From Gammaproteobacteria bacterium (GTDB lineage Bacteria > Pseudomonadota > Gammaproteobacteria > Steroidobacterales > JABDMI01), in contig JABDMI010000127.1 in the NCBI GenBank assembly GCA_013001575.1, positions 1 to 63,790 of the forward strand: DNA of 63,790 nucleotides, read 5' to 3'. This document shows positions 4,692 through 48,896 of the stretch, piece by piece (position 1 is the first letter of the stretch; each line of letters opens with the position of its first letter). The notes under the pieces are model-generated. The model saw nothing but the letters and a program-made list of their open reading frames with translations, was not told where the DNA came from and did not search any database. A program made the position numbers and the translations under genes.

Positions 4692-4871
4692 AATTAGATT
4701 CTTATATTTGATTTTAAATGGGCTTGATCCAGAACCAGCTGAATATTTAGATGACCATTGTAATGATTTAAGGTTGATATTTTTAGCAAAAAATGAACGA
4801 ATTCGTATAATTTTCTGTGCATTCAGGCGCTTGAAAGCACTTAATGTGCTTAAATCTTTTATAATTTCACA

Positions 4872-5348
4872 ATGCCAACCGATAAAAAAACCAAAAAAAG
4901 CAATAATCAAATTGCTGTCAATCGTAAAGCCGGACACGATTTTTTCATTGAACAGCGCTTTGAAGCGGGCCTTGCCCTGCAGGGCTGGGAAGTGAAAAGT
5001 TTACGCATGGGTAAGGCAAATCTGACCGACACCTATGTACGCATTATCAAAAACGAAGCGTGGTTACTGGGTTTACACATCACCCCGTTACTCTCGACCT
5101 CCACGCATGTACACGCCGACCCCACCCGGGTACGAAAATTATTACTGAATCGGCGTGAACTCGATATGTTGATCGGCGCGGTAGAACGCAAAGGTTATAC
5201 CCTGGTTGCGCTGAAAATGTACTGGAAGAATGGACGTGCCAAACTCGAAATCGGATTGGGTAAAGGCAAAAAGAGTTATGATAAACGCGCTGCTGAAAAG
5301 AACCGTGACTGGAATCGGCAAAAAGCACGTATTTTAAAAGGTCGCTAA
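4872..5348 (+). CDS. smpB: SsrA-binding protein SmpB
   Basis: 158 aa. [29 protein letters not shown] and a basic C-terminal tail are typical of SmpB. Confidence 0.95.
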
Positions 5349-5386: not shown

Positions 5387-6559
5387 ATGACAGATTTAAA
5401 ACCCAGCAAAGAACAGGTTCGCTTACAGATCAATGAACTTGACCAGCAATTACTCAAAGCATTGGCCAAACGCAAAGAACTGGTCGCCGATGTGATCGCC
5501 GACAAGATACGTGCCGGTCATCCCATTCGTGACACCGATCGTGAGCAGGCGCTGCTTTCGCGTCTGGTGGCAGATGGCATCGACCTGCAACTGAATCCGC
5601 AATTTGTATTAGACGTTTACCATCGTATTCTGGATGACTCGGTGCGGCAACAATATACCCACAGCTTGAATCGTGAAAACAAAGAGCAAATAAAAGAACT
5701 GCTCATTGCGCATTTGGGTGACCAGTATTCGTATAGCTATTTGGCAGTCGAGCGGCATTTCGCCAATTACCCGACAAAATTCGTGGGTCAGGGATTTGAT
5801 CATTTTCGAGAAATTTTTAACGCGGTGGCAAATCAGGAAGTTAATCTGGGATTGTTACCATTTGAAAATACCACTTCCGGCACCATTAACGAGATCCACG
5901 ATCTGCTGCGTGAATTTTCTTTATACATAGTGGGCGAGGAAAGTGTGGCCATACGCCATTGCCTGATCGGATTCCCGGGCAACAAGATCCATGAATTGAA
6001 AGATGTGTATTCACATCCTCAAGCCTTGGCACAATCCGGCGCGTTTTTACAAAAGTATCCCAATTTGCATGCCAATTTTTACGCCAGCACCTCAACCGCG
6101 GTAAATTACATAAAAGAGATAGGCGATCCAACAAAAGCCGCCATTGCCAGTCGCGAAGCGGCCATGCATGCTGGCCTAAGTGTGCTTGCCGAAGACATCG
6201 GCAATCAAGCCGAAAACTACACCCGCTTCATTATTATTGCCAGAAATCCGGTAAGCGTGCCCAATAATTTACCCGCAAAAACCACCTTATTGTTTGCTAC
6301 CCAGCATCAGGCCGGGGCTTTGGTGGACGTCTTGAATGTATTAAAAGAACACAAGATCAATATGACCAAATTAACCTCACGCCCTATTCCTGGCAAAGCC
6401 TGGCAAGAATTGTTTTTTGTGGATTTCCAGGGCAATCAGGCTGACGAGAATGTGCACGAAGCTTTGAACGAGGTGGAACAGCACGCGGCCTTTATGCGGG
6501 TTTTGGGCAGTTATCCCGAGCATTCCATTGATCCTACCCAGATTCAGTTGAAAGACTGA
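5387..6559 (+). CDS. pheA: Bifunctional chorismate mutase / prephenate dehydratase (P-protein)
   Basis: 390 aa. N-terminal chorismate mutase helix region, a central prephenate dehydratase region (ENTTSGTINE, YTRFIII) and a C-terminal ACT-like region. Confidence 0.9.
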   Translation: MTDLKPSKEQVRLQINELDQQLLKALAKRKELVADVIADKIRAGHPIRDTDREQALLSRLVADGIDLQLNPQFVLDVYHRILDDSVRQQYTHSLNRENKEQIKELLIAHLGDQYSYSYLAVERHFANYPTKFVGQGFDHFREIFNAVANQEVNLGLLPFENTTSGTINEIHDLLREFSLYIVGEESVAIRHCLIGFPGNKIHELKDVYSHPQALAQSGAFLQKYPNLHANFYASTSTAVNYIKEIGDPTKAAIASREAAMHAGLSVLAEDIGNQAENYTRFIIIARNPVSVPNNLPAKTTLLFATQHQAGALVDVLNVLKEHKINMTKLTSRPIPGKAWQELFFVDFQGNQADENVHEALNEVEQHAAFMRVLGSYPEHSIDPTQIQLKD

Positions 6560-6657: not shown

Positions 6658-7016
6658 GGGGGCGACCTGGCTTCGACGTGGATAGCGAAACTTTTTGTGC
6701 ATACCGAGCTGTAGCGACTCGTTAAACCACTGCAAACCTTATAGTTGCAAACGATAACAACTACGCATTAGCTGCTTAATAACCAGTTTTAATGCCCTTG
6801 GCCCACAATGAGCCTATGCGTTGTGGAATCCAGGGTTACTTTTATAGGATCGCGGCGAGTGATGTTCAAGCGCAGACCGTTAAACTCTTACTTGAACTGG
6901 CTTAGTGGCTTCCCTGACAGTCGGGTACTGCTAAGTAAGATTAAAGACTGAATAAGTATGTAGAGCGAGAAGCGGAGGATTTGCGGACGCGGGTTCGATT
7001 CCCGCCGCCTCCACCA
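6658..7016 (+). ncRNA. ssrA: tmRNA (SsrA)
   Basis: The 5' GGGGGCG pairs with the 3' CGCCUCC-A-CCA, including a G3:U pair. The T-arm GGGTTCGATTCCC is present. Tag ORF at 6747-6779 is GCA AAC GAT AAC AAC TAC GCA TTA GCT GCT TAA TAA = ANDNNYALAA. Overall close to the E. coli ssrA layout. Confidence 0.92.
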
Positions 7017-9269: not shown

Positions 9270-10565
9270 TTAAGCGGCTTTGGAAATCGCCCGGAGCTTG
9301 CTGAAGGTGTTTTTCAAGTCCTGTTTCAGGTCTTCGATGTCCTCCAGACCAACGGATAGACGAATCAAGTCTTGTGTTACGCCGGTAGATTCCTGTTGCT
9401 CTTCCGTCAGTTGTTGATGCGTGGTACTCGCCGGATGAATGATCAGCGATTTTGAGTCTCCGATATTCGCCAGCAAAGAGAAAAGTTTGGATTCGTCAGC
9501 AATAGTTTTTGCCGCTTCGTAACCACCGGCAACGCCAAAGGTCACAATTCCGCTTTGACCTTTAGATAGGTATTTGTCAGATAATGATTTGTATTTGCTA
9601 GTCTTGAGTCCAGGATAGTTCACCCATAACACCTCGTCTTGAGCTTGTAACCATTCGGCCAGCGCTAGCGCATTTTCACAATGCTTTTTCACACGCAAAC
9701 TTAGGGTTTCGAGTCCTTGAATGATCTGGAAAGCATTGAATGGGCTAATTGCACCACCCAGATCGCGTAAGCCTTCGATACGAACTTTGGCAATAAACGC
9801 CGCTTCGGCCAACGCTTCGGCATACACCAGTCCGTGATAACCCGGCGATGGCTGAGTAAATTCTGGGAATTTTCCGTTAGCGTAATCGAATGTTCCAGCA
9901 TCAATAATCGCGCCACCCAGTGAAGTGCCATTGCCATTGATGTATTTTGTGAGGGAATGAATCACAATATTCGCGCCGTGTTTGATGGGATTCAACAAAG
10001 CAGGAGTTGCTACAGTGTTATCGACGATAAATGGGACTTGTACGTCTTTGGCAACGGAACTGATGGCATCCAGATCGAGAACGTCGAGTTTTGGATTACC
10101 GAGTGATTCGACAAAGATCGCACGAGTGTTGTCTTGAACCGCCTTGGAGAAATTTTCTACATCATCAGGATCAACGAATGTCGTGGTTATCCCGAAACGC
10201 GGTAAGGTCACGTTGAGTAGATTATAGGTACCACCATATAAGCTGTTGGAGGCTACGATATGGTCACCCGATTTTAGTAAAGTCAGCAAGGTTGTTGAAA
10301 TTGCCGCTGTACCAGAAGCCGTCGCCACCGCCGCAATTCCGCCCTCCACCGCTGCCAGGCGCTGTTCCAGGATGTCTACGGTCGGGTTATTGATGCGGGT
10401 ATAGATATAACCCGGCTCGGCAAGTGAGAACAGATCCGCCGCGTGTTGGGCATTGTTAAACACATAAGCCGTGCTTTGGAAAATAGGCACTGCACGGGTT
10501 CCAGCCGTTTGACCAACGTCGTGTCCGGCATGTAAAGCTTGTGTATCGAAATTATGAGTTGTCAT
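9270..10565 (-). CDS. metY: O-acetylhomoserine sulfhydrylase (aminocarboxypropyltransferase), PLP-dependent
   Basis: TQALHAGH..TRAVPIFQSTAYVF, YTRINNPT and SLTKYINGNG (PLP lysine) motifs. Start set at MTTHNF (ATG 10565). Confidence 0.85.
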   Translation of the reverse strand: MTTHNFDTQALHAGHDVGQTAGTRAVPIFQSTAYVFNNAQHAADLFSLAEPGYIYTRINNPTVDILEQRLAAVEGGIAAVATASGTAAISTTLLTLLKSGDHIVASNSLYGGTYNLLNVTLPRFGITTTFVDPDDVENFSKAVQDNTRAIFVESLGNPKLDVLDLDAISSVAKDVQVPFIVDNTVATPALLNPIKHGANIVIHSLTKYINGNGTSLGGAIIDAGTFDYANGKFPEFTQPSPGYHGLVYAEALAEAAFIAKVRIEGLRDLGGAISPFNAFQIIQGLETLSLRVKKHCENALALAEWLQAQDEVLWVNYPGLKTSKYKSLSDKYLSKGQSGIVTFGVAGGYEAAKTIADESKLFSLLANIGDSKSLIIHPASTTHQQLTEEQQESTGVTQDLIRLSVGLEDIEDLKQDLKNTFSKLRAISKAA

Positions 10566-10610
10566 TTGGGTTTCCCTTTGTAACTGTTTGATATTAATGT
10601 TAAAAATGGC

Positions 10611-10643
10611 AAAAAAAATCCCCGGCACTGTATGTATCGGGGA
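10611..10643 (-). terminator. Leader terminator 45 nt upstream of metY start (attenuator element)
   Basis: Minus strand reads GAUCCCCG-13 nt loop-CGGGGAUU followed by a U8 run. The 5' arm can alternatively pair with CGGGGA at 10678-10683. Confidence 0.5.
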
Positions 10644-10668
10644 TCGAATTGATTAGCGTTAATCAGAC

Positions 10669-10728
10669 TTAATCAGCTCCCCGGCGTGCTGGCATACACG
10701 CACAACGACATGGCATACACATCGGCAT
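10669..10728 (-). CDS. Candidate Met/Cys-rich leader peptide (MPMCMPCRCACMPARRGAD)
   Basis: Hand translation: ATG CCG ATG TGT ATG CCA TGT CGT TGT GCG TGT ATG CCA GCA CGC CGG GGA GCT GAT TAA. The last sense codons overlap the antiterminator arm. No strong SD seen. Confidence 0.4.
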   Translation of the reverse strand: MPMCMPCRCACMPARRGAD

Positions 10729-10768
10729 ATGGGGTTTGATGAATTTGGACAATTTGTTCATTGGTGGC

Positions 10769-10812
10769 ATATTAAGAATATTTCATTTAGACGTCTAAAC
10801 GTCTGGACGGCT
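10769..10812 (-). promoter_or_regulatory. Predicted metY promoter with three tandem MetJ-type met boxes
   Basis: Plus strand has AGACGTCT (10789-10796), AAACGTCT (10797-10804) and GGACGGCT (10805-10812). On the minus strand there is -35 TTAGAC (10793-10798), an 18-nt spacer and -10 TAATAT (10769-10774). Confidence 0.5.
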
Positions 10813-11299
10813 TTGACTATACAGAGATGGGCGGGAGATTGCAAGGGACAATTTAAGAAAATCTGAAAACCAAGAATGCAAACCACCTGGAACTCAAACA
10901 TTTCCAAATTTAACTGATGCAAAAAGATCGGATTGATACCCACGCTTTTGGTTACGATGGGGTGATAAATCTGAAGAGTCTGGGTTTAGCTCAAATAGAT
11001 CTAATGTTTCTTACGACGAAGAATTCTTAATTGAAAATACATCGAGTAAATCCGTAACAAAGAATTCCCAAGTAGAAATACCTTTAGAAACAGTAGCTCC
11101 AAAAAAGATCGTATTATTGAAATACAAATTATTCATTAGTTTACTCAAATAATGCTGATATCTTTTCAGTGTGTAAAAAACAATTTGAAGCAGTTACTAA
11201 TGAAGAGACAAATGAGAATACAAGCCCACTCGCGAAGCTGATGTCTATTTAACTCGCCAAGCATCGGATTAAGGCACTTAATGCCTGTTCACTCGACAA

Positions 11300-11851
11300 T
11301 CATTCATTGCACCAGGAATGTTCCTTGCTTTTACGACAGTATTCATCCGCATCATATTTAAACCACAGATCAAGGGCCTTTTTAGCATCAATACTCTTAT
11401 CATCAAGATCAAAATCGTCAATAAACAACATGAAGTCTCCCGAAATACCACAGGCGTGTTGTATAAATTGCCAATCAGCAAGACCCGTTCTTTCAAACGT
11501 ACGCCCGTTTTGTTCAGCAAATAACTCCATTTTAGAAATATAGGATTCCGCAAGACAGGTTGCAGCTGAATCCGCAAGGCCAGTGGCCCAGGGAATAGGC
11601 GTCTCACTCTCGTAAACTTCGTTCTCGCATACGCGTGCGAATATCGTTGCAGGCACGTTAGTACAAGAGTCCGGAGCACTAAGGACCTTGTTCCACGCAT
11701 CTTCTTTTGCCTGCTGCATCTGAAATTGTGCTTCTCTTAAAATTTCAAAATCGGACTTTTGATTTGCCTTTTCAATCATGATAAATGTAAAGATTCCCAT
11801 TGCGGCAACCAATACACTCATAATAATTGTGATAATTTTTTTCTTAGACAT
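11300..11851 (-). CDS. Hypothetical membrane-anchored, Cys-containing protein
   Basis: 183 aa with an N-terminal TM anchor (IITIIMSVLVAAMGIFTFIMI). No motif I recognise. A hairpin lies downstream at about 11268-11288. Confidence 0.55.
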   Translation of the reverse strand: MSKKKIITIIMSVLVAAMGIFTFIMIEKANQKSDFEILREAQFQMQQAKEDAWNKVLSAPDSCTNVPATIFARVCENEVYESETPIPWATGLADSAATCLAESYISKMELFAEQNGRTFERTGLADWQFIQHACGISGDFMLFIDDFDLDDKSIDAKKALDLWFKYDADEYCRKSKEHSWCNE

Positions 11852-11934
11852 GATTCCCCCTGGAAAATATGCACGCAGAATTTAATCATATCCAATATTG
11901 ACTGGGAATGTGCAATCTATGCAAAAAAAGAAAA

Positions 11935-12021
<87 letters not shown>

Positions 12022-45971: not shown

Positions 45972-48875
45972 ATGAAAAGATTATTAGTAAACGCAACGCA
46001 ATCCGAAGAGATGCGCGTTGCAATGGTCGATGGCCAACACCTTTACAACCTCGACATCGAATCGCCAGCGCGCGAATCACGTAAAGCCAATATATACAAA
46101 GGCGTAATCACCCGGGTCGAGCCGAGTCTCGAAGCCGCGTTTGTTGATTACGGGGCTGAACGTCACGGATTTCTGCCTCTCAAAGAGATCGGCAAAGAAT
46201 ACCTCTCAAACTATAGCGGTAAAGGCAAGCCCAACATCAAAGAAGTGCTCAAAGAAGGCACTGAAGTAGTCGTACAGGTTGAAAAAGACGAACGTGGAAA
46301 CAAAGGCGCAGCCCTAACCACGTTTATTAGTCTGGCCGGTCGCTACCTGGTGTGCATGCCAACCAATGCCAAAGCCGGTGGCGTATCGCGTCGCATCGAA
46401 GGTAAAGACCGTAACGAATTACGTCAGGTCATGAACAATTTGAAAGTACCGGATGGCATGGGTGCAATTGCACGTACCGCGGCAGTGGGACGCAATGTCG
46501 AAGAACTGCAATGGGATCTTGACTATCTGGTCAATATTGCCAATGCGATCTATGAAGTTTCGGAAAAACGCAAAGCCCCCTTCCTGATCTATCAAGAGAA
46601 TAAGCCGATATTGCGCGCCTTACGCGATCATTTCAGTGGTGAAGTTGGCGAGATCGTTATTGATAACGATGAAATTTACCAGGAAGCAAAAAACTTTGTG
46701 GCTAAAGTTATGCCGCAATACGAACGCAAAGTAAAACTTTATAACGATGACGTTCCATTGTTTAACCGTTTTCAGATCGAAGGCCAGATCAATTCTGCCT
46801 TTGCTCACACCGTTGACCTGCCTTCCGGCGGTAGTGTGGTGTTTGATCGCACTGAAGCCTTGACCTCTATCGACATTAACTCCGCGCGAGCAACCAAAGG
46901 TGGCGATATTGAAGCTACCGCTTTAAACACGAACCTTGAAGCGGCTGAAGAGATTGCGCGTCAATTACGCATACGCGATCTTGGCGGCTTGATAGTTATT
47001 GACTTCATCGACATGTACCAGCAACGCAATCAAAAAGAAGTGGAACGCCGAATGAAAGAATCGGTACGGCATGATCGCGCGCGTATACAAATTGGACGTA
47101 TCTCGCGTTTTGGTTTAATGGAAATGTCACGTCAACGCTTACGCCCTTCTCTAAGTGAAGCCAATACCATGACCTGTCCACGTTGCAGTGGCCTGGGATC
47201 AATACGCGACGTTGAATCGCTATCACTGTCTATTCTGCGCTTGATCGGCGACGAAGCCAGAAAAGACAACACCTCACAAGTTGTTGCCCAATTACCCGTC
47301 GATGTCAGCACTTATTTGTTGAATGAAAAACGCGAATGGGTTGCAGAGATCGAAACTCGCAACAATGTGCGTGTGATCGTTTTGCCCGACGCACAACTGG
47401 AAACCCCGCATTTCCATTTGCGCCGCATTAAAGGCGATGAAATGGCCCTGCCTGAAAATCAGGGTTCCAGTGTTGACCTGGCATCCAAAATTGAAGATTT
47501 GCCATTGGTTGATCTGGACAAATTCGGCAAAAAACAAACACCGGAAGTTCCGGCGGTTGCCAATATTCTTCCAGAAACACCTGCACCACAACACGTACCA
47601 AAAAAGAAAACTCAAAAGCCCGTTAAGTCACGTAAACCTACCTCCGAAAAAGCTCCGGTAAAAGAACTTGGACTGATTAAACGAGTGACTAATTGGTTTA
47701 CCGGTAGCGCAACAGAAAAACCGACAAGCGAAGAAAAAGTCCGTAAAGACAAAGAATCTCGTGAACGCAAGGATTCCAAGAGTCGTCAACCACGTGGCAA
47801 GCAGGGCCAAGACAAAAGCCGTTCAGGCAAGCAACAAAGCCGCGGCAAGCAACAGGGTCAGAAATCTCAAAACCAAAAGCGTAATGAACGCGGGCGCGGC
47901 CAATCAAAACACAAGACCCAGTCTGATCGTAGTCAAAGTCAAAAAGGCAAGCAGCAAGATCGCAAACAGGGGCAACGCAAACAACAAAGGTCTCGCGATG
48001 AAAATTCCGATGTAACAGATACAAAATCCACAGACACACAGATCCGGCAAGATAATCAACAAGCCAAGCAACAAAGCGGCGAGCAAAAACAGGGGCGTCA
48101 GCGCCAAGGACGCAATCGCAATCGTAACCGTCGTCGCAACCCGCGTAGCAACGAACAACAATCGCAACCACGTGATGACAAGCCGCAATCCCAAACTGCG
48201 GAACCTGTAAAACAAGCAGCGCAACAAGCCAAACCGGAATCCAAGTCGGCAAGTGTACAGCCGGAGGTCAAGCGAGCAGAACAAAAAGTCGAAACGCCCG
48301 TTTCCAAGCCTGCCGCACCAAGCCAAGCGTCAAATTCTGGTTATGTAGCCCCATTGGCAGCGGCCCCGGATAGCAAACCTGAAAACAAGCAAAGCGAAGC
48401 AATGCGTTTTGCTCCGTCCAAGCCTGAGGTATCTGCAGCACCTAAACCTGCGGCACCTAAACCTGCGACACCTAAACCCGCTGCTCCCAAACCCGCTGCT
48501 CCCAAACCGGCAGCACCTGAAGCTAAGGCAGCAAAGTCTGAGCAAAAGCCGCAACAAGCTCCTCAGACTCCAACACAACACACTCCAAAGCCAGTGACCC
48601 CAAAACCACAAACTCCACCAAGCAAAGCGCCTGCTCAAGCTACCGCCGAAATACCGGCGCCGGCTAAAAGTGGCGGGTTTGGATTCTCAACCACGAGTGC
48701 TGCACAAACAACGACCGCACCAGCCATTCCCAAGGCCGTTGAGAAAAGACCGGTACCCAAGAAAACTGCTGAAGCTCAAAAAGAGACTCCAGTTAAAAAG
48801 ATAAGTGATGGCAAGTCGGCATTCACATTAAGCCATTCCGATAATGTGGTGCCAAAAAACAAAGAAAACGGCTAA
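45972..48875 (+). CDS. rne: Ribonuclease E
   Basis: [30 protein letters not shown] begins a conserved catalytic N-terminal half. The C-terminal scaffold is long, Arg/Pro/Gln-rich and low in complexity. Confidence 0.95.
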
Positions 48876-48896
48876 ACGTCTTTATTTAGCTCAGAT

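Follow-up and report, generated by a model that had tools for sequence, protein, structure and literature searches.

The question raised by this locus is how transcription of a metY-metX gene pair is regulated. The pair is encoded on the minus strand of a 63,790-nucleotide stretch of DNA from a gammaproteobacterial metagenome-assembled genome (MAG), contig JABDMI010000127.1, which was analysed as a whole and is called the window below. The initial annotation had read the leader of metY as an attenuator of the trp/his type, made of a short Met/Cys-rich open reading frame (ORF) and two alternative RNA stems. The element is indeed likely to be a ribosome-mediated leader-peptide transcription attenuator, which would read the supply of charged tRNA-Met and tRNA-Cys and is stacked on a MetJ-type operator. 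In the computational test described here it has the sequence-level features that define this class of attenuators. The individual elements, their geometry and the alternative pairings can be read directly from the DNA, as can their conservation and co-variation in four species (Table 1).

The gap upstream of metY on the minus strand is 650 base pairs (bp) long and holds a promoter, met boxes, the leader ORF and a terminator, in that order. The promoter is sigma-70-like and matches the consensus at 9 of 12 positions. The ORF was originally described as having 19 codons, with four Met and four Cys among the first 12. It was said to end in a CGGGGA arm (10683-10678) able to pair with UCCCCG (10643-10638), which can alternatively pair with a second CGGGGA (10624-10619) followed by U8, the metY ATG (10565) lying 45 nucleotides (nt) past the U-run. 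All of these sequences are present at the coordinates given. The reading frame and the stop codon of the ORF also stand, whereas its length probably does not. The frame is open upstream of 10728 and has in-frame ATGs at 10770 and 10761, so that the 19-codon ORF is probably the 3' part of a longer one. The leader ORF probably starts at 10770 and has 33 codons, of which 10728-10669 form the 3' part, or else has 30 codons if the alternative start at 10761 is used. Among the 829 ATG-initiated ORFs of 12-40 codons in the whole window, the leader ORF ranks first for its fraction of Met plus Cys. The background in the long ORFs of the window is 2.1% Met and 0.7% Cys (2.8% together). The cluster of four Met and four Cys codons includes both copies of the direct repeat GTGTATGCCA.

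The terminator hairpin has the sequence GAUCCCCG-A-UAC-AUACA-GUG-C-CGGGGAU and is followed by U8 (10645-10611). Its stem consists of 8 bp and an inner stem of 3 bp. The interruption of the stem hid the hairpin from a simple terminator scan, which permits loops of 3-8 only. The terminator was assessed by ViennaRNA folds instead, which gave an energy of -15.0 kcal/mol and a z-score of -4.7, with none of 200 shuffled sequences being equal. Region 3, which forms the 5' side of the terminator, pairs best with CCGGGGAG at the end of the ORF (region 2). The z-score of this antiterminator fold is a modest -1.4, and the window alone therefore leaves the idea of a switch open.

The MetY of the window is without close relatives: the nearest among 5.8 billion proteins are 83% and 81% identical to it; next below are many Flavobacteriaceae MetY proteins at 78-81% identity. 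In a neighbour-joining tree of the 120 best MetY matches, from which the clade was delimited, the window MetY groups with proteins P0002, P0003 and P0046, whose contigs, L082, L083 and L087, come from other metagenomes and encode MetY proteins 79-83% identical to that of the window. The four leader-bearing loci belong to related uncultured marine bacteria. L082 is syntenic with the window (amtB-metY-hydrolase), and its AmtB is 88% identical. A further contig, L081, represents the same species as the window, from which its leader region differs by three bases at two sites. At L081 position 1246 (window 10761) the second in-frame ATG is changed to GTG with the frame still open, and at 1417-1418 (window 10590-10589) AA is changed to GT between the terminator and the Shine-Dalgarno (SD) sequence of metY. 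The ORF, both stems and the operator are the same as in the window.

On the next MetY branch (P0091, contig L091) an Rrf2 gene lies upstream of metY and there is no leader, which sets the limit of the leader-bearing clade. A MetY scan of genome contigs returned only Flavobacteriaceae and more distant taxa, with no leader-bearing relative among them. A scan of metagenomes with the promoter/operator DNA pattern gave 0 matches. The metagenome pattern ATGTGTATGCC-N70-100-GGATTTTTTT gave 36 matches, none with metY downstream, and these were judged to be due to chance; a recurrent 'MCMPY' match from the pattern scan was antisense inside a gene. No metY adjoins amtB in contigs L084, L085, L086 and L130. 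In L131 the order is amtB-tRNA-Leu-ORF183, and the contig ends before the position of metY.

The leader ORF is retained in all four loci (values are given hereafter in the order window, L082, L083, L087). The distance from the -10 element to the first in-frame ATG is 45, 53, 51 and 49 nt, and the ORFs, each the first ATG-initiated ORF in its leader, have 33, 33, 25 and 29 codons. The numbers of Met and Cys codons per cluster are 4+4, 3+3, 3+3 and 3+3, situated within 10-12 codons at the same relative place. The position of the stop codon and the Met/Cys content are repeated in all four leaders by the frame of the leader ORF alone, and this conservation of the frame argues for translation of the ORF. 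The peptide core is MCMP in the window, L083 and L087, and CCCMP in L082. The initial annotation had considered that the repeat GTGTATGCCA might be a protein site. This concern is largely answered by the finding that the repeat consists of Cys-Met-Pro codons and is shared between the leaders as the peptide MCMP or CCCMP. Beyond the Met/Cys/Pro cluster the peptides (MHITDLPIVSKKHGYDSMSMPCCCMPLSLWGIK in L082, MSNPLNYCCPIMCMPYMADTTLSSG in L083 and MSAQTRIISINCPMCMPCMRATTRCRLDM in L087) are unrelated, their N- and C-terminal parts being unconserved, as is expected if constraint falls only on the regulatory codons and the RNA arms. Pro codons are kept beside the Met and Cys codons (xP-MCMP-C/Y), and the Met and Cys counts are equal within each cluster. 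The ORF starts lie in AU-rich RNA that is predicted to be unpaired in three of the four leaders; the start in L082 is inside a small predicted hairpin. L082 also has a second, overlapping frame of 49 codons (1771-1921; MTLCRCHVVVCHC...), which contains Cys codons and crosses the terminator. This second frame is not conserved in the other three leaders.

The terminators and antiterminators were compared by pairing tables built for each sequence, as a MAFFT alignment of the four switch regions was out of structural register. When the whole upstream leader is searched, the best duplex partner of region 3 is formed by the last codons of the ORF in all four leaders, at positions -16 to -8, -19 to -8, -14 to -1 and -18 to -5 relative to the end of the stop codon. 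The energies of the region 2:3 duplexes are -12.4, -13.7, -11.7 and -13.7 kcal/mol, and were reached by fractions of 0.010, 0.024, 0.002 and 0.002 of the shuffled sequences. The z-scores of the antiterminator folds are -1.4, -2.75, -2.96 and -3.54. The terminators have energies of -15.0, -17.0, -13.6 and -13.5 kcal/mol, with z-scores of -4.7 to -3.9 and none of 200 shuffled sequences as good, and end in tracts of U7-U8. The interrupted stem is common to all four, and stem positions 4-6, counted from the U-run, show compensatory double changes from G-C to A-U between species.

Region 3 has two alternative partners, region 2 at the end of the ORF and region 4 on the 3' side of the hairpin, and the two co-change between species. 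Region 2 is similar to region 4 within a species and different between species, sharing CCGGGGA in the window and GGGGA in L082. The corresponding pairs are GUCGAG-GGAU and GUCUGAGGGAU in L083, and GCCGA-GGAU and GCUCAGAGGAU in L087. The attenuation reading of the initial annotation is supported by these comparisons, because the ORF, the Met/Cys cluster, the position of the stop codon and the mutually exclusive pairings are kept, with compensatory changes in the stems, in three diverged orthologous leaders.

The spacing of the elements is similarly constant. The end of the stop codon is 23, 22, 22 and 24 nt from the 5' arm of the terminator and 50, 53, 48 and 50 nt from the U-run. The last codon of the cluster is separated from region 2 by 9, 9, 14 and 16 nt, and region 2 would therefore remain free if a ribosome stalled in the cluster. 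From the end of region 2 to the start of the stop codon there are 6, 6, -1 and 3 nt (the negative value being a 1-nt overlap in L083), so that a terminating ribosome would cover region 2 and not region 3, 22-24 nt further on. In the predicted folds of the nascent transcript region 2 is paired with an upstream segment, region 1, situated in or just before the cluster. The energies of the region 1:2 pairing are -8.4 kcal/mol in the window (ACCCCA), -12.4 kcal/mol in L083 (AAUCCACUUAACU) and -8.1 kcal/mol in L087 (CCCAAUGUGUAU). With region 1 the leader would have four regions, as in trp, and would terminate when untranslated; of all the parts of the model, region 1 is the least secure. The small hairpin nested in the loop of the antiterminator, which may serve as a pause site or as a spacer, is predicted at the equivalent site in each of the four leaders.

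Table 1. Features of the metY leader and gene pair in the window, and the switch arms of the four leaders
Feature	Position	Strand	Details
Sigma-70-like promoter	10844-10816	-	-35 TTGCAA 10844-10839, 17-nt spacer, -10 TATAGT 10821-10816
Three tandem 8-bp met boxes	10812-10789	-	AGCCGTCC AGACGTTT AGACGTCT; just downstream of -10
Leader ORF, 33 codons and stop (probable extent)	10770-10669	-	peptide MPPMNKLSKFIKPHMPMCMPCRCACMPARRGAD; stop TAA 10671-10669
First-described 19-codon ORF	ATG 10728 to TAA 10671-10669	-	encodes MPMCMPCRCACMPARRGAD
Candidate region 1	10735-10730	-	ACCCCA; predicted to pair with region 2 when leader is ribosome-free
Regulatory codon cluster, codons 15-26	10728-10693	-	M P M C M P C R C A C M
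Region 2, antiterminator 5' arm	10684-10677	-	CCGGGGAG; codons 29-32; ends 6 nt before stop codon
Small hairpin	10664-10651	-	GAUUAACGCUAAUC; nested in antiterminator loop
Region 3	10645-10634	-	GAUCCCCGAUAC; terminator 5' side = antiterminator 3' arm
Region 4	10628-10619	-	GUGCCGGGGA; terminator 3' side, then U8 10618-10611
metY	10565-9270	-	431 residues; TIGR01326, 638.8 bits (cut-off 495.1)
MetX-like alpha/beta hydrolase	9252-8197	-	351 residues; MetX models 173 bits, under equivalog cut-off
Switch arms, window			region 2 CGGGGA; region 3 UCCCCG; region 4 CGGGGA
Switch arms, L082			region 2 UUAUGGGGA; region 3 UCCCCGUAA; region 4 UGCGGGGA
Switch arms, L083			region 2 GUCGAGUGGAU; region 3 AUCCCUUCGAC; region 4 GUCUGAGGGAU
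Switch arms, L087			region 2 GCCGAUUGGAU; region 3 AUCCUCUCGGC; region 4 GCUCAGAGGAU

The met boxes were recognized with the consensus of PMC4239095. Two of them, at 10804-10789, match 15 of the 16 positions of two consensus boxes, and the third occupies 10812-10805; 0.05 matches of that quality are expected by chance in the window. TATAGT is found at the equivalent place in L082, L083 and L087, with boxes of the AGACGTCT type adjoining or overlapping it. The boxes are identical to those of the window in L082, AGACGTCT AAACGGCT in L083, and GTACGTCT AGACGTAT in L087, where they overlap the -10 element. Tandem 8-bp AGACGTCT-like boxes are described at the promoters of methionine genes, and metY is listed as a genome-specific MetJ target (PMC4239095). 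The boxes at the metY promoter are thus a putative MetJ operator, to which MetJ would bind judging by sequence similarity. In the window, L082 and L083 the boxes are downstream of the -10 element and their palindrome is therefore transcribed. The RNA of the palindrome is predicted to fold into a hairpin at the extreme 5' end of the leader, and this hairpin may affect the stability of the transcript. The boxes of L087 are not transcribed. A second, weaker met-box-like pair in the window, AAACGGCTAAACGTCT at 48866-48881 on the plus strand, has 3 mismatches. It is situated at the 3' end of rne with no methionine gene nearby, and was judged to be a chance match.

From these sequences only, we infer translation of the ORF, stalling of the ribosome, premature termination and binding of MetJ, which would act together as follows. 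Transcription would start a few bases past TATAGT and, if MetJ is present, its complex with S-adenosylmethionine (SAM) at the met boxes would repress initiation. The leader RNA would carry the 33-codon ORF. When Met and Cys are both ample, the ribosome would proceed to the stop codon and mask region 2, the 3:4 hairpin would form ahead of U8, and transcription would terminate at about 10611-10618. When either tRNA-Met or tRNA-Cys is scarce, the ribosome would stall in codons 15-26, covering region 1 and leaving region 2 free. The 2:3 antiterminator would then form, and RNA polymerase would continue into metY-metX. With no ribosome on the leader, the 1:2 and 3:4 pairings would form and transcription would again terminate. 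Together, MetX and MetY make homocysteine from homoserine and sulfide, and no cysteine is consumed. As MetY makes homocysteine and its family is also annotated as cysteine synthase, a combined Met and Cys signal would be a sensible one.

Several observations weigh against this interpretation. The comparison comprises only four distinct sequences, all from metagenomes or MAGs and all from one gene clade, and some of the conservation may therefore reflect shared ancestry. The antiterminator of the window is only marginally better than those of shuffled sequences (z = -1.4), and the 1:2 pairing is weak in L082 (-5.9 kcal/mol). No SD sequence precedes any candidate start of the leader ORF in the four leaders, in agreement with the initial annotation, which had found no strong one; metY itself has an SD sequence in three of the four loci, and only a weak GAGAGA in L083. 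Starvation for Met would also limit formylmethionyl-tRNA, and with it initiation on the leader, which would favour termination unless the elongator tRNA-Met is the more sensitive. In L087, one Cys and one Met codon lie inside or after region 2 and cannot be inducing codons. The conserved Pro codons and the equal Met and Cys counts are not explained by simple codon counting. Lastly, the role of the operator would depend on the host encoding MetJ. A tblastn search with an E. coli MetJ query gave no match to metJ in either the 63.8-kb window or the other loci retrieved, a result that says little about the host genome as a whole. MetJ is reported from only six gammaproteobacterial groups, namely Enterobacterales, Pasteurellales, Vibrionales, Aeromonadales/Psychromonadaceae, other Alteromonadales and Shewanellaceae (PMC4239095).

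The conserved Pro codons leave room for an effect of the nascent peptide. The same switch could be driven by nascent-peptide arrest, in which the xP-MCMP-C/Y core senses not the charging of tRNA but a small molecule, for example SAM, homocysteine, O-acetylhomoserine or sulfide. TnaC and SpeFL stall ribosomes in response to ligands in this way. The geometry of the RNA is equally compatible with arrest, and MCMP with its flanking Pro is kept at the peptide level in three of the leaders, with CCCMP in the fourth. A sensor that purely counts codons has no need of a conserved Pro. However, the conserved residues are exactly the two amino acids of the pathway, in equal numbers. Their order varies (MPMCMPCRCACM, MSMPCCCM, CCPIMCMPYM and CPMCMPCM) and the remainder of the peptide is unconserved. 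Moreover, induction of a biosynthetic operon would need a ligand that signals shortage. Arrest of this kind is an unlikely explanation of the switch.

It is slightly less probable still that the ORF encodes a functional Cys/Met-rich small peptide, for example one that binds metal or sulfur. Such a peptide would have its own terminator and be co-regulated with metY through the met-box promoter, metY being expressed by leaky readthrough and the alternative pairing being incidental. Cys/Met/Pro motifs do occur in metal-binding peptides, and the ORF has been kept as an ORF in four species. The sequence, however, is unconserved beyond the Met/Cys cluster, and its length is 25-33 residues. Its C-terminal residues track the RNA arm that matches the terminator of each species, and the spacing from the stop codon to the terminator is fixed within 2 nt. 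The 45 nt past the U-run are too short for a separate metY promoter, and none was detected there by the promoter scan.

A mechanism independent of translation, in which the TGTATGCC motifs or the leader RNA bind a protein or a metabolite in a riboswitch- or TRAP-like manner and the ORF is a by-product, is a slightly poorer candidate again. All four leaders contain the motif TGTATGCC, of which the window and L087 have repeated copies, and the lack of an SD sequence before the ORF would be in keeping with a by-product. Against this, the frame is open between an ATG and a stop codon that are both positionally conserved in all four leaders, no other frame is conserved, and the periodicity of the repeat is that of the Cys-Met reading frame. 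There is little conservation outside the cluster and the arms, and a 5' untranslated region (UTR) of about 40 nt leaves no room for an aptamer. In addition, the leader region (10000-12000) matched no Rfam family, riboswitch or amino-acid leader (Trp, His, Thr, Leu, Phe), even at E <= 10, and a scan of the whole window at the gathering score placed no family in the leader either; weak Rfam rows for asX2, NsiR1 and anti-hemB reflect the terminator hairpin only. That the short ORF and the hairpin are chance features of an ordinary 5' UTR is very improbable. Short ORFs and hairpins are common and the evidence from the window alone is modest (antiterminator z = -1.4), but all the elements are found together in four diverged loci, where the arms co-vary and the spacing is fixed, and the ORF ranks first of 829 for Met plus Cys.

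A tRNA-sensing attenuator can be compared with several known systems. Leader-peptide attenuators of proteobacteria are described for Trp, His, Phe, Thr, Leu and Ile/Val (trpL, hisL, pheL, thrL, leuL and ilvL/ivbL). Like these, the metY leader has an intrinsic terminator just before the structural gene, an antiterminator 5' arm that would be masked by a ribosome at the stop codon, a possible region 1, and a peptide that is unconserved outside the regulatory codons. It differs from them in its Met and Cys codons, which are interleaved in equal numbers and have Pro codons inside the cluster, in the lack of an SD sequence, in its target metY-metX, in the added MetJ-type operator and in having no match to an Rfam leader.

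Actinobacterial leader ORFs with runs of Cys codons precede cys and cbs operons (PMC1262725). Mycobacterial polycysteine small ORFs, such as Ms5788A, are leaderless, and ribosomes stalled on them open a structure that hides the downstream ribosome-binding site (bioRxiv 10.1101/834739). The metY leader resembles these in having a short, Cys-rich upstream ORF, through which cysteine would be sensed by pausing of the ribosome, ahead of genes for sulfur amino acids. The actinobacterial ORFs are leaderless and act on translation, and no terminator hairpin was found with them. In contrast, the leader described here has a predicted 5' UTR of about 40 nt, a hairpin with U8, Met as well as Cys codons and a gammaproteobacterial host; its terminator is 45 nt upstream of the metY ATG, and the SD sequence of metY is not part of the structure. 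Control by MetJ through tandem AGACGTCT-like boxes at a promoter of methionine biosynthesis, as in PMC4239095, is not combined there with a leader-peptide attenuator, no leader peptide being listed in that study. Like the leader described here, the SAM-I riboswitches of Flavobacteriaceae are leader-RNA elements, not protein operators, upstream of metY-metX, in this case of the closest homologues of the pair (about 80% MetY identity). The SAM-I riboswitch, however, senses SAM directly through an aptamer of about 108 nt (Rfam SAM model), without translation, and is not present in the four leader loci.

The product of metY belongs to the O-acetylhomoserine sulfhydrylase / cysteine synthase family, and the gene has an SD-like AAGGGA at 10578-10573. 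The MetX-like hydrolase is a probable homoserine O-acyltransferase, probably co-transcribed with metY. Its homologues are named homoserine O-acetyltransferase by the Joint Genome Institute (JGI), and a MetX-like gene also follows metY in L082, L083 and L087. Upstream of the leader are a 183-residue ORF, then tRNA-Leu(CAG), and then amtB. The 183-residue ORF (11851-11300, minus strand) has no family match, and L131 has a homologue (2646-2822) at the equivalent position past tRNA-Leu. An AT-rich stretch of about 35% GC (10850-11280) lies between tRNA-Leu and the metY promoter; together with the 183-residue ORF, it may be the remnant of an inserted segment. Elsewhere in the window, on the plus strand, a tmRNA gene (6658-7016; 215.6 bits) is immediately preceded by an smpB-like ORF (about 4870-5348) and by pheA (5387-6559), which encodes chorismate mutase / prephenate dehydratase. 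A pheL leader was sought before pheA as an internal example of attenuation; none was found there, the gap between smpB and pheA being only 39 nt.

The gene pair itself appears to be foreign to its host. The nearest named relatives of metY (about 80% identity) and of the hydrolase (55-58%) are from Flavobacteriaceae. For the host lineage, by contrast, 'Gammaproteobacteria bacterium' MAGs (e.g. NNM13883.1) are the nearest named relatives, and for AmtB these are Porticoccaceae/SAR92-like. In the window the pair is positioned between an SBF gene and tRNA-Leu/amtB, and relatives of the host with AmtB proteins 81-84% identical lack it beside amtB (amtB-DUF1304-SBF in L085 and amtB-ompA in L130). The presence of such a cassette in a gammaproteobacterial MAG points to horizontal acquisition. 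In the flavobacterial loci SAM-I is found before metY (L001, 2766-2886; L004, 2690-2805) or after it, ahead of the next gene (L006, 4352-4453; L014, 4350-4451; L079, 4364-4466), and SAM-II is found nearby on the opposite strand. The search that detected these riboswitches gave no Rfam match at the gathering score in the window, L082, L083 or L087. As SAM-I is present in the flavobacterial loci and in none of the four leader loci, the regulation would have been replaced after transfer. It is likely that the cassette was acquired horizontally and that a met-box promoter and a leader-peptide attenuator then took the place of the riboswitch.

The upstream start at 10770, the MetJ-type operator, the candidate region 1 and the flavobacterial type of the cassette all go beyond the first reading of the locus. 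Methionine genes are known to be under the control of MetJ, MetR or SahR, of riboswitches for SAM or S-adenosylhomocysteine, and of Met T-boxes. To our knowledge, leaders with cysteine codons have been described only in Actinobacteria, where they are translational attenuators, and we know of no leader attenuator specific for Met and Cys. No description of a terminator attenuator with Met/Cys codons was found in the open-access full-text literature searched, which is not proof of novelty. The comparisons support a known mechanism that would have a new amino-acid specificity, dual sensing, a new target and a new combination with a MetJ-type operator. The balance tips slightly towards this being the first leader-peptide transcription attenuator to sense two amino acids of one pathway together, namely Met and Cys through interleaved codons. 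It would have been built de novo in a gammaproteobacterial lineage, on top of a MetJ operator, once a flavobacterial metY-metX cassette had shed its SAM-I riboswitch. At its boldest, the proposal would make the conserved P-MCMP core a nascent-peptide sensor and not a plain codon counter.

If the interpretation is correct, a terminator-based attenuator for Met and Cys would fill a gap in the known amino-acid specificities, and a single leader would integrate two signals of tRNA charging. The locus would also be an example of regulatory rewiring after horizontal transfer, SAM-I controlling the cassette in Flavobacteriaceae versus a met-box operator and a leader peptide here. The element would be a compact, portable part of about 200 nt, and its arrangement, a Met/Cys-rich upstream ORF followed by a terminator, could serve as a template in the search for similar control of other genes of sulfur metabolism.

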